A stretch of DNA of 64,000 nucleotides from an uncultured Bacteroidales bacterium. GTDB taxonomy: Bacteria; Bacteroidota; Bacteroidia; Bacteroidales; UBA10428. This document shows, piece after piece, positions 2,534 through 23,842 of the stretch. Where the stretch lies: assembly GCA_963790105.1 (NCBI GenBank), contig CAWBNI010000015.1, positions 1,434-65,433 of the forward strand, written 5' to 3'. Made by a program: the position numbers and the translations under genes. Every line of letters begins with the position of its first letter. The first letter of the stretch is position 1. The notes under the pieces are model-generated. The model saw nothing but the letters and a program-made list of their open reading frames with translations, had not been told where the DNA came from and did no database searches.

Positions 2534-2741
2534 TGTTGTACTTACAACTTAATATACAAATTATTCCAGCATGTCAAAGAACTTAATCTAATTATGAATT
2601 ATGAATTATAAATGATGAATTTAAAATTCATCCATAATCAAACAAGTAGTAATGAAACAACCGAATGTTTCCGTTTCCTAAACCACATTACCTATTTTAA
2701 AGAACTAAATTTCGAATTTCTAATACACCACAATAAAATTG

Positions 2742-2815
2742 TGGAGAATAAGGGATTCGAACCCTTGACCCCCTGCGTGCAAGGCAGGTGCTCTAGCCAG
2801 CTGAGCTAATTCCCC
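2742..2815 (-). tRNA. tRNA-Ala(TGC)
   Basis: GGGGAATTAGCTCAGCTGGCTAGAGCACCTGCCTTGCACGCAGGGGGTCAAGGGTTCGAATCCCTTATTCTCCA on the minus strand, in the ITS. Confidence 0.97.
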
Positions 2816-2820
2816 GAGGA

Positions 2821-2900
2821 ATTCATCTGTTGATTTGATTGATTTGCTGATTTGTTGATTTTAAATCATCAAATCATTAAATCATCAAATCACCAAATTT
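2821..2900. repeat. 8-bp-period inverted repeat (TTGATTTG / CAAATCAT units) between the ITS tRNAs
   Basis: ttgatttgattgatttgctgatttgttgatttt followed by aaatcatcaaatcattaaatcatcaaatcaccaaa; the two halves are complementary. Confidence 0.7.
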
Positions 2901-2903
2901 ACG

Positions 2904-2977
2904 TAGTCCCGAGCAGACTTGAACTGCTGACCCCTACATTATCAGTGTAGTGCTCTAACCAACTGAGCTACGGGACT
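2904..2977 (-). tRNA. tRNA-Ile(GAT)
   Basis: AGTCCCGTAGCTCAGTTGGTTAGAGCACTACACTGATAATGTAGGGGTCAGCAGTTCAAGTCTGCTCGGGACTA on the minus strand. Confidence 0.97.
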
Positions 2978-3151
2978 GTGTTAATCCGGTATACTCAGCT
3001 CTGCCTGTCCCGGCTTCTTCAGCAAACAGGCTACTGAGCTTAAATTCATCTGCGATTCAAAGTGCCGGGAACACTTTTCAGGGAATTAATATTTTATAAA
3101 AAAAAGAAGAGACTCGAAGGAAAGGAGAGGATTAAGAGTAAATCTCTCTCT

Positions 3152-4677
<1,526 letters not shown>

Positions 4678-16309: not shown

Positions 16310-17377
16310 TTATAGAAAGTGAATATCCAGTTTATCCAGAAACCGTTCATCCCTCATACCAGTCCGGTTGAACATCACTACACTTCCAACCCCGGGATCG
16401 GGATAAATCCTGATTTCACAGTAAAAACCACCGCCTCCACCCGCGTGAGTATAATATTGTATACCATTCAGTTTCCCGGTGAACCAGGATAAACACATCC
16501 CTGTCGGCTTATTTCTGTTGGTGATGTTTTCAGTGAACATCCTCTTTTTATGCTCATCGGATATCAGTCATGCTTCCAGGCCGCAGAAGTTCCTGGATGT
16601 ATTTTGCAAGAGCACCGGCTGTGCCAATTAAACCTCCGTATGAAGGACCATTAACATAATTATCCCTGAATGGTTTCCACTTACCTTCCGGGGCATCCAT
16701 AAATTTTGATTTATCAATAAGCATACCCAGCACCGCATTTGAAAGGCTGAAATATTTGTGATATCCTTTGGCGATGCTGACAAAGTACAATTTCAAAATC
16801 CAGTTCATTTTTCCGGAGATTATGGGTCTTAATCACATTTTCAAGCAATGTAATTTTCATAACTCACTCCGGTAATGCCTTCAATCATTTGTCCCAGTAA
16901 TACATACCCCAGGTTGGAATAAGCAAATTTTTCATTGGGTCACGGAGCTTACCTTATTATTATCTTTTATAAATAGCTGCTGAAGTATTCGTTCCGGTCA
17001 AATGACGAAATGTTCTTCTGCCAGGTGTATCCATCGCAGGGGAATTGGATTGGGAATACCGGCAGAATGTGACATTACCTGTTCAACTGTAATTTCAGGC
17101 GGATAAGGAAATTGAGGCAGGTAGCTAATGATGGGCAGGCTTATATCTAGCGTATTGCTGACCGGCCAACTGCAGGATGGCCAGTGACCGTGAAGGTTTT
17201 TGTTACGGAAAAAGCATGATAAGCCGTTTTTTCCGAAGTTTTTATTCCACCCTTGATATCGGCAAATCCATCCCGGAATTGATGAATTATTTGATCTTTG
17301 TCGAAAAACAGGTATTGAACTGAAGGTGTCTTATTTTCCTCAATTTGCTCAGTCAAAACTGAATCAACATTTGTCAT
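16310..17377 (-). CDS. Serine hydrolase, beta-lactamase/PBP-like (class C / S12); multiple indels
   Basis: SxxK (FSVTK), YxN (FAYSNLGY), GPSYGGL, HAGGGGGF. Start overlaps the upstream stop by 4 bp. No obvious signal peptide. Confidence 0.85.
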
Positions 17378-19964
17378 AATTTTTCTGCTCTTTTTCTCAT
17401 TTCTTCTGTTTTCCTGGTCAGCATTTTAATTTGTGCCACGACTTCCGGATCATCACGGTATTTCACAAACCATGGTCCATGCTGCAATTGTGCATAATCA
17501 ATCCAGTTTGCGTCAATTGCTTTCTTTAGCCATTTGAGGGCCTCGTCACGCTGGCCTCTAATTGCATAGATTGCGGCAATATGGAACGGAGGATTTTTAT
17601 CCTGCGAACCATTTTTGATTTCATTGAGGTTGATTTCAAGCGCATGGGACAGATATACATCTGCCTCTACCTGCTTGCCTTCTTCGAGCAGGATCTGTCC
17701 CAGACCAATCGGGCTTACTGTATTAGGATCATCGATATATCCCTGGTTTTGTTCAATCGATTGTTGAAAATAGGATTGTGCACGCATTTTATCGCCGGCA
17801 AAATGGGAGATGAGACCTGCAATTTCATAGGCCCGTGAATCCGGATGGATTTTCTGCAACAGGGTATTCACCAGTTTCAGTGCATCCTGTTTCCTTCCCT
17901 GGCTAACATAACAATATGCAAGCAATTCATAGGTATCCCAGTATGAAGTGCTATTGAGCTCAAGCGATTTTTCAAGCCAGCTTACAGCATTCGGTAAATC
18001 ACCAAGCAGCTGATAGGTCCATCCGACAATCTGAAAAGGAATCGCATTCTTCGGATTTAAACCGGCCGCCTTTTTTTCCCATCTCAAAGCCTCCGGTAGA
18101 TCGCCAAGCAAGAAAATAGGAAGTTCCCAGGTTACCGATTGCCTGGGCATTGTTTGGATTGAGTTTAACTGCTTTTTTCAGCAGGATAAAGGCAGTGTCA
18201 TATCTGCCTGCATAGTTATATGCATTTGCGAGCGCCTTATAACCCTCCGATATTGTTGAATCGAGCTGGATGGCCTTTTTCGAAGCCATGATGCTGGAAT
18301 CAATCCAGGATATCTCCCTGCCAAACCGGTTATGCATCTGGCTGTATGCGTCTCCCAGTCCCGCCCATGCCAGAGCATATCCGGGGTCAAGGGCAATGGC
18401 CATTTTGAATTGCTCGATTGCCTGGTCATTGCTTTTGCTTTGGTAAAGATAATACAGCGTTCGCCCTTTGAGGTAATAATCATAGGAGGTAGGATTCTTT
18501 GTAGGCAACCGGTCAAGTTTTTCCTTTTCAAGCTGGTTGATCCGGATATTCAAAACTGCAGGCAATGCTTCGTGCAATTTCACTTTGCACAGACATAAGG
18601 TCGCGGCTGTTTCGCTGAAACGTCTCACCCCAAAGGAATTTATTGGTAGAACATTCGATCAGCCTGGCCGAGATCTTGATAATATCACCGGAACGTCGGA
18701 CACTTCCGGTGAGAATATTGGCAACATTCAGCTCGCTGGCAATCTTTTTATAGGACAGGTCGTCTCCGCGATATTCCTGGATCGACTGGCGGTTGATCAC
18801 ATGCAGGTCGCCGAGAATGGACAAATGTTCAATGATCTCATCCGTTAATCCATCTGCAAAGTATTCATCGCTCTGGTCCTCGCTGCGATTATCAAAAGGA
18901 AGAACAGCAATAGATTCTTTTGAGATTTGAACCGCCGGAAGAATTATTTCGTGAAAAATAAAAATAGACGAATTGTGAAACAACCAGAAGGCAGAGCAAA
19001 AAGATTGTCATGTTTCCGGTAAACGGTTTTTTGCGCCCCGGCCTGTATGGATTTTTAGTGGATTGGGACGAAGTGGTAAGGATGAAACCCTTCGGACTGG
19101 CTTCGAAAAACCAGGCGAGTACTAGGGCGACGGAAAACCGCATAGCAGGAACCAATCCAGGAAACCGGATATTTTATTCAGAAAGACCAACGCGGTTTGA
19201 CAGGATGATGGCCATCTGGCGCAAGGACAAGTGCAACAACGAGGTATGCAAATCCGGCCCTGAACACGTTCCGGCGCTTCAGTTCAGACCAGATCCTGCC
19301 TGATCCCTGAATCTCGAACGCAGGGCAGGTTCAGCACTGACGATCAGGGTCAGTAAGTACTTCATTTCTGTTCTGCAACGCATCCAGGATCTGATCAATC
19401 GCATTGGCGGTTTTATTGATCTGATCACGGTACACGGTTTTATTTATATTTTCAGACCGGACTGTCAGAAGGAGCGAGCGGCCGGTTTACACCCGGCGAT
19501 TTAAAAATAAACGGGATTGCCCTAGCGGCCCGCCATTTTCCTTTTCAAAAAGACGAAGATCGCCCTGGCTGAGCTCATGGATCTGTATGGGCAATATCCG
19601 GCTGGTCACATTCCGGTCGGCAAGCCGTACATCGATGCCAAAGTCATCGCCCCTGGCAAAATCACGAAATGCGAGGAATTCATGCTGCCATGCAAAACTT
19701 TTTACATCACAATAGGTCTGGGAAATGATGGGTATGAAGATGAGGCACTTCAGTTTCCCTTCCAGGCTCTTATTTACATTGTGGGTCTCAAGCAGGCCAT
19801 CCTGAGGATTGCTGATCGAAATAAACCGAAACGGTTTCCTTGATGGTACCCCTCAACTCCTTCTCAAGGTTTTTTACAAAATCGGAAACCCAGCCATCAA
19901 GATTATCATTGTGGCGGTAGCTGATGAAAATGTCGTATTCATAAGCCGGTATCAGGCTTGCCAT
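17374..19964 (-). CDS. TIR-domain / 3TM / TolB-like / TPR membrane protein; multiple indels
   Basis: Manual translation from ATG 19964 gives MASLIPAYEYDIFISYRHNDNLDGWVSDF...LIFIPIISQTYCDVKSFAWQHEF (TIR). Then ELKRRNVFRAGFAYL and ALVLAWFFE TM block, SIAVLPFDN..DEYFADGLTDEII (TolB-like) and TPRs (AIALDPGYALAWAGLG). Confidence 0.85.
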
Positions 19965-20031
19965 AGTGAAAATATCAGTTTACCCGAATAATATGGATCA
20001 TTAACATTCTGTAAATGTTTTTGTTCTCGGA

Positions 20032-21262
20032 TTACCGCGATGGAATCTGATAAACCGTTCCATTGCAATCGACTGTGCCATTGCTTGCAGGTGCTGCCTC
20101 TTCTCGCATGGATAATTCCGGCAACGAGTGCACAGGCCATGGACGTTCCCGACATAACCTGGTATTGACGGCCAGGCCAGGTGGAAATTATTGCAGAACC
20201 AGGGGCGGCCCAGTCAACTGCAGGTTTTCCGTAATTGGAATAGGATGCACATCCGGTAATACCGGTCGAACAATCAAAATCCAGGGCTGCTACAGTAAAA
20301 ACATTAGGGCCGTTGATGCATCCGGGCAGATTGAGATTGGCGTCTCCCTGGTCATTCCCGGCCGACATAACAATAAACATTCCGCTGTTTGCAAGTTCCT
20401 GGATGGCTGAAAACAAGGAAGGATTTGATCTCTCACACGAAGAAACATCATACCCACCCAGGCTCATCATGACCACATCGCCTGGCCTGCCCGTATTTTG
20501 CAATATGATCAAGTCCCTTGAGAATATTTGACCAGGAACCAACGCCATTCCTGTCAAGCACTTTAACCGGAATTACCTCCGCCCCGGAAGAAACACCGTT
20601 ACATGCCAATTTTGCCGACTCCCTTTCCGGCGGCAATTCCGGCACAATGCGTTCCATGACCTGCGTAATCATCGGTTGCGACTTTCACCGGGTATAAATG
20701 AAACGGGAATATTGCCCCTGGAGTTTACTTTTAGATCGGGATGATTTTTATCGATGCCGGAATCCATGATCCAGATCGACTTCTTTACGGTTGTCACTGT
20801 TTACGGATCCGCCAACCAGGTTGACAGCACAGCTTGATTTGGTTGTTTCGTTATAATTCCATGATTGCTGGATGGGACTTCCCTGCTGGATGGGTATTCC
20901 TTGCTGGATTGGAATTCCCTGCATTTCGAAATCCTCGTAAACACCTTCCACATTCGGATCTTGGCCAGTTCACCTACCTGATCCTCGGTGAGATCGGCCT
21001 CAAATCCAACCTTGGCGTCGGCAAATTTATAGGATCGGAGAAATTCGTTTTGATTTTGGCAAAACCATCAACCTTCTGGATAATTTCCTGTCTCGTTCTG
21101 GCTTGTTTCCATTATTTTGCTGCTCTCTGTCAGCATTATCCACCCGGTTTCGAATTACCGGAGCTTCAAACCCCTCTTTCATGATTACTACATAATGCTT
21201 CTGAGCGGACAGGCCGTAAGAGTTTAGCCAATACTAAAAAGAGAATAAATAATCTTCTTCAT
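20032..21262 (-). CDS. Secreted subtilisin-like S8 protease with I9-type propeptide; multiple indels
   Basis: Triad motifs WIMDSGID, GHGTHCAG and MSGTSMA; oxyanion SAGN; signal peptide from ATG 21262; propeptide YVVIMKEG...VEGVYEDFEM. Confidence 0.9.
20865..20918 (-). repeat. 3 x 18-bp in-frame repeat encoding GIPIQQ-GIPIQQ-GSPIQQ
   Basis: gga att cca atc cag caa / gga ata ccc atc cag cag / gga agt ccc atc cag caa. Confidence 0.95.
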
Positions 21263-21415: not shown

Positions 21416-23842
21416 TCAGTTTGCTATAACAACATATTTCCCGGCAGCCATTTCAAATTCGCCCCGGACAATGTTTACCTCAATTATTTTGTTTTTTGCA
21501 AGGTCCAATACAACACATTTTGCTTTTTGATACGCCTCAGGGATAATTATTTTTGCCCGGGCATTTTCAGGAATTGTAAAATTAAGGGCAAAAGATTTCC
21601 CTTTTATTCCCCATTCTGATGAAATCGTTCCTTTTATAGAGTTATAGGAACATTTAACCCACTTTATGTTGCCCACAGGTTTTGGCGCTATAATAATATG
21701 GTCATATGCAACTGAATTTTCAGCCTGGTAAATTCCTCCCAGACCGCTATAGAACCATTCCATAAGATGGCCCAGCATCATATGATCGTTCGATGAGGTA
21801 GGAAGTGCAGCCCAACTTTCGGTTAAAGCGGTAGCACCCTTTTTTAACTGGTATCCGTAACCAGGCACATCGCTTCTGTTGTTCATTTTGTAGAGTATAT
21901 CCGATCTTCCGTTTTCACTTAATACCCTTACAAGAAAGTGATAGCCAATGTCACCTGAAGTCAGTGCATAATTGTTCTTTATAATTGAGTTTACCAGGTT
22001 GTCAAAAACTTTCTTTTTATCCTTGTCCGGAATTAATCCGGTATAAAGCGACATGGCATAAGCGGTCTGGCTTCCGGTAGAACAAATCCCGGTGTTTTCA
22101 TCGTAAAATTCAGTAAGATATGCTTGCTTTACCATTTCGGATTGATCATTATAATTTTTATAATCGTTGTCAAATCCGAGTATTTTAGACATTTCTGAGA
22201 TGAGCTTTAAATCATAAAAATAAATGGCTGTGGCAGTAACTGCTTTTGGAGTCAATTGGGCTTCCCCGGGATATTTTGGACCCAGGTCATACCAGTCACC
22301 CAGTCCATAGTCAATTATATGATCAATTGATTTGCCCTGCAGATAATCCACATATCGCTTCATCATGGGGTAGGCGCGCTTTATTGCATCCATATCCCCA
22401 TACCATTTATATAAAAGCCAGGGAATTATGACCGCGGCACTTCCCCACTCGGGAGAATCGCGAAAACCACCTTCAAAATGAACATATTCAGGGGCAATGT
22501 CCGGTATTAACCCGTTATCGAGCTGAGAATCCATCATATCATCCAGAATCTTATTATATAAAGAATGGATATCAAAATTGTAATGCATGGATGACCCGAT
22601 AAGATAGGTCTGCTCAAGCCAGCCCAGCTTTTCCCGATGCGGGCAATCGGTTGCTACACTGGCCATATTGCTTTTGATACCCCAGTTGATCAGTTCAAAA
22701 ATCCGGTTGAAAAGTGTATCGGAGCAGCTGAAGGATCCCACTGTGGGAGAAGAATTTCGGGTGTGAAGCATTGTAACGTCCAGGATCTCTGTTTTTTTTG
22801 TCGCTCCCTCAGGTTCAATAATTTCAACATCGGCATATCGAAATCCGTAATAGCTGAATGCCGGCTTCCATTCCTCCTCGTCACCTCCCTTAAGGATATA
22901 ATTAAATTCGTAAGGACCACCGCCACTCACCTGGGTTATGTTTCCCTGGTCATTGATCAGTTCATCCGGCCTTATTCTGATTTGAGCACCCCTGTTTCCT
23001 TTTACTTTTAATGCAATTATTCCGGAAGTGTTCTGCCCGAAATCATAAATTATCCTTCCGGTCCGCGAATGAGAGATATTCTTTACAGGGAATTTCTGCA
23101 TCACTTTAACCGGAAAATCCTCCTCAGGTGCAAGTTTGCCGATGGAATCATGAATAATAACCGGGGCCTTCCATTTTGAATCGTCAAATCCCGGAGCTGG
23201 CCCATCCATTTTGCTCCAGCCTGGCATCATAGTCTTCACCCCCGTATATACTGCTGAATGTAATGGGCGAAGCACTTGTTTTACAATTTTCATCCGATTG
23301 AATGGTCTTTAAAGAACCATCTTTCATTTTAAGGACAATATTAAATATCAGCCTTGGATAGCCATAGGCTACCACCATCTTTCGATAACGTTCCCTGTTA
23401 ATATTAAAAAAGCCATTGCCAACAATAACACCAATCACATTATCACCTTTTTTAACAAACCGGGTTATATCGTATGTATTATAAAAGCAGCGTTTCTGAT
23501 AATAGGTCCAGCCCGGTGACAAAAAACGATCGCTGATTTTTTCGCCGTTTATATACAGTTCATATTGCCCCAGCCCGCAAATATTGATTGAAGCGCTGTC
23601 AATATCTCCCTTTGCATTGAACTCTTTGCGAAACAGGGGTACCACTGAACGCTTTACACATTTGTCACCCAGACCATCGCCTGGCACCATGAATTGCAGG
23701 CACCACCTTCAGGGTGTCTGCCAATTGTTCGAATGCAATCCATTGTGCACCGCCAAAGATTTCAACCTTACCGGATTTGTTTTTTCTGGGTACAGCCAGT
23801 AAAAGGATAGCTGCAAGAAATAAAATAAAAACTTCTGACCAT
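21416..23842 (-). CDS. Alpha-L-rhamnosidase (GH78); indels in the 5' part
   Basis: LFRKEF, GLGQYELYING, GGEDYDAR, DFGQN, YYGFRY, TDCPHREKLGW, GLGDW, GATALTESW, SNDHMMLG. Confidence 0.92.

Follow-up and report, generated by a model that had tools for sequence, protein, structure and literature searches.

A reiterated P-x-x-Q motif at the pro/mature junction of Bacteroidota subtilases and its linkage to a gene for a TIR-like/TPR membrane protein

The repeat array and its place in the protease

The 64,000-nucleotide stretch of Bacteroidales DNA analysed here (the window, from contig C15) carries on its minus strand a gene for a subtilisin-like serine peptidase, a member of family S8 with an I9 propeptide (MEROPS clan SB), followed downstream by a gene for a membrane protein with TIR-like and TPR domains. 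Within the peptidase gene three consecutive 18-nucleotide units encode the peptide GIPIQQ-GIPIQQ-GSPIQQ (Table 1). An initial annotation of the window had called attention to this repeat and to the synonymous att/ata, cca/ccc and caa/cag differences among its units, and the minus-strand letters bear out both. The reverse complement of 20918-20865 reads GGA ATT CCA ATC CAG CAA, GGA ATA CCC ATC CAG CAG and GGA AGT CCC ATC CAG CAA, in which those three kinds of difference are synonymous and one unit has Ser in place of Ile. The array directly follows the end of the propeptide, ...Y-E-D-F-E-M-Q, whose last four residues are encoded by TTC GAA ATG CAG. Tandem Repeats Finder reports it at 20866-20922 with a period of 18, 3.2 copies, 84% matches and a score of 86, the highest of its nine rows for the whole window. 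If a comparable period-18 array is taken to be two adjacent unit-to-unit comparisons, each with at least 80% identity, the window contains one, and none of 200 first-order Markov simulations contains any. The repeat is neither a product of chance nor one of recent slippage.

The array also lies where the initial annotation had placed it, at the junction between the propeptide and the mature enzyme. In intact orthologues (P0001 and the 406-residue protein of genome G019) Pfam places the I9 domain at residues 22-113 and the S8 domain at residues 160-381, with the repeats at residues 114-131, and the last QQ-SWNY falls on the mature N-terminus of subtilisin E. The G019 orthologue matches PF00082 at 127.2 bits; for the propeptide model PF05922 (I9), which has a cut-off of 21.2 bits, P0001 scores 32.0 bits, P0016 21.9 and G019 20.2, just under the cut-off. 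An AlphaFold2 (AF2) model of the G019 zymogen, built on a 117-sequence alignment, has a mean pLDDT of 94.7, with values of 77-78 in the repeats and short strands at residues 111-113, 117-118 and 123. In Foldseek the model is most similar to two pro-subtilisins that have not undergone autoprocessing, IS1-inserted pro-subtilisin E (3whi), which is the best match, and pro-Tk-subtilisin; PCSK9 chains are also among the matches. HMMER alignment to 3whi sets DPNVDGVYEDFSVQ on the propeptide end, the repeats on the inserted segment and QQSWNYNES on the canonical mature N-terminus; the array is thus inserted precisely where the propeptide tail gives way to the mature N-terminus.

Table 1. Coordinates of the features of the protease locus, in window positions.
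Feature	Coordinates	Strand	Remarks
GIPIQQ GIPIQQ GSPIQQ array	20865..20918	minus	three 18-nt units; conserved core P-I-Q-Q
S8 (subtilisin-like) peptidase gene	20032..21262	minus	encodes a signal peptide and an I9 propeptide; differs from the intact G729 orthologue by about 11 indels of 1-2 nt
I9-type propeptide region (approximate)	20919..21200	minus	ends D-F-E-M-Q right before the repeats; this end is a putative primary autoprocessing site with Gln as P1
Frame piece with catalytic Asp motif	20669..20800	minus	IWIMDSGID
Frame piece with catalytic His motif	20599..20724	minus	GHGTHCAG
Frame piece with oxyanion Asn and catalytic Ser	19952..20572	minus	SAGND and SGTSMA; Peptidase_S8, 61.1 bits
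TIR-like/TPR membrane protein gene	17377..19964	minus	downstream of S8; TIR-like N-terminal domain, transmembrane helices, TolB_N-like domain, about 10 TPRs, TPR end domain; about 11 small indels

Conservation of the units and selection on the peptide

The junction of the G019 orthologue reads VQ-GIPIQQ-GIPIQQ-GIPIQQ-SWNYNE, that of G729, a genome of the window's genus, MQ-GKPIQQ-GEPIQQ-GSPLQQ-AWNYNE, and that of P0001 MQ-GKPIQQ-GQPIQQ-GSPIQQ. A metagenome contig likewise has three units, with two listed changes in 20865-20918 (at 20898 and 20907), both of which read as synonymous. A search with the G019 protein returned 1088 homologues at E <= 1e-10; among the best 120 of these 1088, which were the ones examined, the majority are repeat-less and a distinct set carries two to five units (RPRMQ, RPMMQ, NPIQQ, DPIFQ, DPIMQ). 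When 1.84 billion representatives were searched with a profile, many further 50%-identity clusters with two to six copies came to light, for example DPIMQ x6, TPIFQ x4, KPRMQ x3, RKPMMQ x2, RTPILQ x3 and TRARMQ x2. The initial annotation had named orthologues without a conserved repeat as the finding that would speak against it; orthologues and distant relatives alike carry the repeat.

At least two copies stand at the junction in 25 of 117 aligned family members. In a set of 224 proteins, chosen for a suitable length and for a catalytic Asp that could be recognised, 54 carry at least two PxxQ motifs within the 70-residue junction, although a few of these (P0072, P0091, P0154) are chance occurrences by eye. 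The density of PxxQ in the 54 is 4.15 per 100 residues at the junction versus 0.15 in the rest of the same proteins, and in the other 170 it is 0.29 at the junction versus 0.08 elsewhere. The consensus from 157 instances is [RDKN]-P-[IRM]-[MQF]-Q-[SG], and in some members, such as P0090 and P0128, the spacers between motifs are irregular. NCBIfam holds no specific model for the S8 protein, all of its matches lying far under cut-off. The array defines one branch of a Bacteroidota family of small (about 400-450 residues) secreted I9-S8 subtilases.

Within the window's order, family members at E <= 1e-40 occur in 20 of 400 other genomes (21 of 401 with G000 included). At the 23 such loci from other genomes an S8 open reading frame (ORF) was found in 16, all 16 with repeat-less junctions, and none was found in seven. 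L020, with DDPIQQ x4, is the sole repeat-bearing member among the contig-scan matches listed, which are otherwise mostly unrelated subtilases with generic S8 patterns. At this locus (L119/L020, G423:C118) the four DDPIQQ units are followed by a Cys-rich stretch (GCCCGDGGCKAARC) and then by a fifth unit, NPIQQ, before the catalytic Asp. The S8 gene there runs to a contig edge and the best orthologue of the TPR protein in G423 begins at another edge (L150), so that the two genes are probably adjacent.

The age of the trait was estimated from a maximum-likelihood tree of the 117 proteins, made by a 'quick' method with the junction columns excluded. All 91 repeat-less proteins fall into a single clade (SH-aLRT 99), and outside it stand the 25 repeat-bearing proteins together with P0008, which has a single copy. 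Only two changes of the repeat label are needed on this tree, a number as low as this being reached in none of 500 shuffles. Several rows on the repeat side are long-branched and the inner order there is unsure. By this tree the repeat trait has one origin or one loss, and it is as old as the split between proteins that are now about 40% identical.

The 26 proteins of the repeat side share more than the array. D165, H200, N300 and S371 are invariant among them, and judged by these residues their catalytic apparatus is intact. Gln recurs at regular intervals from the propeptide end onward, as the initial annotation had proposed, at Q113 in 24 of 26, at Q119 in 25 of 26 and at Q125 in all 26. 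The propeptide tail of the repeat side closes with D-F-x-[MIV]-Q; at position 113, the first of the three, members of the repeat-less clade have E, S or Q. In the catalytic domain (G019 numbering) the repeat side is set apart from the repeat-less clade by A375, right after the catalytic Ser motif and Pro in 90 of 91 repeat-less proteins, S297 (Ala), G255 (Asp) and F326/C328 (Cys/Asn); in the propeptide, K58 is invariant on the repeat side. These residues may reflect a changed substrate cleft or disulphide pattern.

Selection on the units was examined in 12 arrays from 12 genes for which DNA was at hand, which give 32 unit pairs and 192 codon pairs within arrays. The codons are identical in 82 pairs, differ synonymously in 98 and differ non-synonymously in 12. 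Ten of the last group come from the propeptide end of L130, 'KSAKVQ', which had been scripted as a unit in error, and the other two are the Ile/Ser difference of the window, so the corrected count is 98 synonymous versus 2 real non-synonymous differences. The units are kept alike as peptides by selection on the peptide, as the initial annotation had suggested, and in orthologues the three units persist with hardly any changes other than synonymous ones. Recent slippage and gene conversion are excluded because the synonymous sites of the units have diverged; gene conversion in particular was considered as the source of unit identity and rejected on this ground. Since the units have remained identical as peptides despite synonymous drift, each of them should have the same reading partner.

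Two other explanations of the array can be weighed against these data. The initial annotation had offered a Q-rich assembly motif as an alternative. We rejected an assembly or aggregation motif of this kind on the ground that M, F, H, I or L can freely stand in for the first residue of QQ; what is conserved is the core P-x-x-Q. The array might otherwise be a plain linker in which only length and flexibility count, as in IS1 of Tk-subtilisin, the motif being a by-product of the linker's origin. Its exact placement at the IS1 insert of 3whi fits this idea, as does the presence of a non-repeated linker of 25-60 residues at the same place in the repeat-less clade. The conservation pattern contradicts it: a constraint on length alone would not keep the P, the residue next to it and the Q invariant across proteins that are about 40% identical, nor would it be expected to leave so few non-synonymous differences between units. 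We consider the plain linker rather unlikely.

Reading frames in the window and the linked TIR-like/TPR gene

The S8 gene of the window begins with ATG at 21262-21260 and ends with TAA at 20034-20032. No single uninterrupted S8 reading frame joins them; at least seven frame pieces cover 20032-21262, and the signal peptide, propeptide, Asp, His and Ser pieces lie in different frames. PF00082 matches three of the pieces, the largest match far exceeding the gathering cut-off of 21.8 bits, and the window contains each of DSGID, GHGTH, SAGND and SGTSMA, though spread over different frames. The repeat itself sits in an open stretch of 73 codons (20748-20969). G729 has rhamnosidase, S8 and TIR-like/TPR genes in the same order as the window, all intact, and the two sequences are 80.4% identical over 6079 aligned bases. 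Their alignment has 31 gaps, 26 of them of 1-2 nucleotides and mostly extra single bases of the window outside homopolymers; besides those of the S8 and TPR genes (Table 1), the small indels include one in the rhamnosidase gene. At 20095, 20484, 20780/20782 and 21226 the window has extra bases that are absent from metagenome contigs, and behind 20960 it lacks a base that the contigs have; these contigs are two rows from one sample (each 0.05 of words), relatives at 85-99% likeness rather than the window's source. ORF coverage (ORFs of at least 150 residues) is 0.1-0.67 over the first ~30 kb of contig C15 (window 1-30000) and 0.84-1.0 in most 4-kb bins further along, where three are lower (0.69, 0.32, 0.69). 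Because the intact genes of G019 and G729 and the metagenome contigs lack the frame breaks, these are probably assembly errors in a poorly polished contig end and not signs of a pseudogene.

The error-rich sequence around the repeat invites the suspicion that the array is itself a functionless assembly artefact, or else a trace of recent replication slippage. Either is highly improbable. No small indel falls inside 20865-20918 relative to G729 or to the metagenome contigs, the units differ at synonymous sites, and the same three units recur in G019, G729, P0001 and the metagenome contigs.

Gene calls in window 1-30000 need care in view of the unpolished appearance of this contig end. The alpha-L-rhamnosidase-like gene at 21416-23690 (minus strand) is split into two overlapping frames of 625 and 168 residues, and its G729 counterpart is one ORF of at least 670 residues. 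Short AT-rich tandem repeats (periods 7, 8, 14 and 16) cluster at 2590-2898, where there are nearly no long ORFs.

The gene downstream of S8 is broken in the same manner, with at least five frame pieces in the window and an intact copy of 861 residues in G729. In G019 the corresponding 777-residue protein follows the S8 gene after 4 nucleotides on the same strand, and the two genes are co-directional in the window's genus (G019, G729 and the window). Its TPR end domain matches NF047558 at 75 bits versus a cut-off of 32. By tblastn against P0285 four of five window pieces are 59-75% identical, and the piece covering about residues 149-468 is 44.5% identical; against the neighbour of the S8 gene at L122 the window pieces are 48-49% identical over the whole length. 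Pfam TIR models do not match its N-terminal domain at E up to 0.1, and a PDB sequence search with this domain gave no match. In an AF2 model of residues 1-230 (pLDDT 74.6), all top Foldseek matches are TIR domains (SNC1, AbTir, L6, PdTIR, SARM1, MyD88), with E down to 5e-6 and target-normalised TM-scores up to 0.66, and the domain has, according to this model, a TIR fold. ESM Atlas gives TIR_2 clusters at 0.89 for the TIR-like domain, which is a lead only. The domain order and the absence of a signal peptide suggest a topology with the TIR-like domain inside and the TPR domain outside.

A second sample comes from another family and was drawn through L020 of a Cyclobacteriaceae metagenome-assembled genome. 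It comprises 30 S8 loci, in 27 of which a script found the S8 ORF, 16 of them repeat-bearing and 11 repeat-less. Twelve of the 16 repeat-bearing loci have a homologue of the TPR protein next to S8, always convergent and a few bases from the S8 stop; two of the others end at a contig edge and two (L141, L142) are without a TPR homologue. No TPR homologue lies beside any of the 11 repeat-less S8 genes, or beside the remaining S8 loci of the sample. In the reverse direction, a search with the TPR protein yielded 28 loci, and the best eight by C-terminal match are seven with an S8 gene and one contig end; none of 20 loci of paralogues of the TPR protein has an S8 gene. These counts are descriptive, as related genomes are not independent. 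The pair of S8 and TIR-like/TPR genes is specific and old, and it has been kept through a change in relative orientation.

Linkage of this kind raises the possibility that the array is a docking motif, remaining uncut and multivalent, through which the periplasmic TPR domain of the neighbour would hold or regulate the zymogen or an N-terminally extended mature enzyme. The restriction of linkage to repeat-bearing S8 genes, its persistence in two orientations and two orders, and the identity of the units through selection and not gene conversion, which implies a single reader, are all consistent with this idea. Periplasmic TPR adaptors that hold and activate proteases are known, LbcA-CtpA and NlpI-Prc being such pairs (PMC8764530, PMC11021448). 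However, LbcA and NlpI partner S41 proteases and not S8 enzymes, binding is here a candidate by analogy, and the propeptide end shares the terminal Gln of the units, which fits a protease site better than a docking motif. Taken together, we regard docking as unlikely, but as the foremost of the alternatives.

Several further features of the locus and of the membrane protein can be recorded. PADLOC finds no defined defence system, only generic 'TPR' and 'subtilase' matches and weak IetS matches. The membrane protein belongs to a Bacteroidota family with an N-terminal TIR fold that Pfam does not detect (window 17377-19964, minus; L149:4704-7037, minus; L184:3425-6010, plus) and an invariant W-x-x-E-F. 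By ESM Atlas structure rows, paralogues fuse the TIR-like module to varied outer parts (TPR, PD40, FGE-sulfatase, cyclase), and there are several such paralogues per genome (four in G423, four in G568). At L122 two of them flank the repeat-bearing S8 gene, 1-1203 and 2651-4138 (both minus), the upstream one divergent and the downstream one convergent. An HGSNAT_cat/Acyl_transf_3 membrane acyltransferase gene lies divergently upstream of S8 in eight of the 16 repeat-bearing loci (L126, L130, L131, L138, L139, L143, L146 and L124); the gene may belong to the module as its third member, or its position may simply reflect synteny in the family.

Possible roles of the array and comparison with known systems

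The reading that we tentatively favour, with somewhat less than even confidence, is that the array consists of reiterated processing sites with Gln at P1, set in an IS1-like tether, in a protease that works with a TPR partner. The zymogen would cut itself after the Gln at the propeptide end. The array would act as a tether long enough for the catalytic domain's N-terminal part to reach its final place before cleavage; in pro-subtilisin E the Ca1 site forms only after the rearrangement of the N-terminus that follows autoprocessing (PMC8767453). Each unit would repeat the Gln-P1 site, and the array could then be cut back one unit at a time, which would release hexapeptides of identical sequence into the periplasm. 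The protease would work together with the adjacent membrane protein, the TIR-like domain of which would be cytoplasmic and the TolB_N-like and TPR domains periplasmic, and recognition of the array or its products would most likely fall to the TPR domain. Cleavage at Gln, the role as a tether and contact with the TPR protein are all things that we infer from the sequences.

A number of observations weigh against this reading. Canonical spacing (Asp+6, from the subtilisin E alignment) puts the cut two residues after Q113, before a Pro, and for Q113 to be P1 the tail would have to be shorter, because the canonical position falls those two residues later. Pro at P4 is atypical of subtilisin preference. 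The units of L141 (G434:C348) are S-E-P-I-L-H x3 and end in His, not Gln. Both L141 and L142 bear repeats and have no TPR homologue in the sequence covered, which at L141 extends 409 nucleotides downstream. In the second family sample the S8 and TPR genes are convergent and form no operon, and the linkage counts overstate the evidence because the related genomes are not independent. A conserved PxxQ, which might have made the TPR partner itself a possible substrate, was not found in it, 72 of 76 proteins being without a match. Finally, the cleavage at Gln is a prediction from sequence only.

A further alternative takes the units to be a peptide precursor: cuts at Gln would free identical hexapeptide signals, which the TPR ectodomain would sense and pass on to the TIR-like domain in the cytoplasm. 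What chiefly sets this idea and the docking motif apart from reiterated processing sites is whether the array gets cut and what the TPR domain would bind. Multi-copy peptide precursors show the pattern seen here, identical units whose synonymous divergence is saturated; the units differ among lineages (PIQQ, PRMQ, PIMQ, PIFQ, PIHQ, PILQ) and are uniform within a protein; and the neighbour is receptor-like, with the TIR fold that Foldseek detects. On the other hand, the irregular spacers of P0090 and P0128 suit a motif array better than a clean polyprotein, the second position of the unit varies within the G729 protein (GKPIQQ, GEPIQQ, GSPLQQ), and peptide release and receptor binding are putative, by analogy. 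We judge a peptide precursor improbable.

The same caution holds for an analogy that reaches further still. With Toll/Spaetzle signalling the pair would share an ectodomain rich in repeats, a span through the membrane and a TIR domain in the cytoplasm, together with an extracellular serine protease that could make the ligand. A bacterial counterpart, in which Gln-cut hexapeptides or the exposed array were read by the TPR ectodomain and switched the TIR-like domain (NAD+ cleavage or signalling), is a long shot. It would make the unit types PIQQ, PRMQ, PIMQ, PIFQ and PIHQ into matched sets of protease, peptide and receptor. The system differs from Toll in having TPR in place of leucine-rich repeats and in being bacterial; the likeness is an analogy only, in which ligand and signalling are hypothetical.

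Textbook subtilase maturation is propeptide-assisted folding followed by a single cut, and here a whole branch repeats a selected motif at the cut site. If the units are reiterated processing sites, the motif predicts stepwise or multivalent maturation and a specificity for Gln at P1, which can be checked with simple peptides. The receptor-like build of the neighbour (TPR outside, TIR-like inside) would also make the pair a two-gene system for asking how the periplasm controls a bacterial TIR protein. In the literature searched, which leaves most subscription journals outside and a prior mention possible, we came upon neither a reiterated P-x-x-Q motif at such a junction nor a pairing of S8 with a TIR-like/TPR gene.

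Parts of the system have known counterparts. IS1 of pro-Tk-subtilisin, carried as an insert by the pro-subtilisin E of 3whi and reportedly the subject of a study by Uehara et al. in 2013, likewise adds a segment to an S8A subtilase after the C-terminus of the propeptide and before the mature N-terminus. It differs in being a single, non-repeated archaeal segment that has no sequence likeness to P-x-x-Q, so that the two share a position and are not homologous, and we know of no TPR gene linked to it. Multi-copy peptide precursors that are cut by subtilases include yeast alpha-factor, processed by Kex2, and the Bacillus Phr peptides, processed by subtilisin, Epr and Vpr. As in those precursors, short tandem peptides are kept by selection on the peptide, the units being identical as peptides under purifying selection (82 codon pairs are identical, 98 differ synonymously and 2 show a real non-synonymous difference), the putative cutter is an S8 enzyme and the peptide sequences are lineage-specific. 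Here, by contrast, the repeats lie inside the protease, at its pro/mature junction, release is putative and the spacers are irregular in some members.

In LbcA-CtpA and NlpI-Prc, which the pair resembles, a serine protease of the periplasm is controlled by a TPR protein of the same compartment that serves as its partner. They differ in that the proteases are S41 C-terminal processing proteases and the adaptors are outer-membrane lipoproteins with neither a TIR domain nor an inner-membrane anchor. PCSK9, an S8 enzyme, autoprocesses after Gln, at VFAQ152, with a hydrophobic P4 (PMC8551645). PCSK9 is eukaryotic, has one site without reiteration and stays inhibited by its prodomain; its I9-like prodomain, its self-cut after Gln and its hydrophobic P4 nevertheless have a likeness in the propeptide end seen here, F-x-[MIV]-Q.

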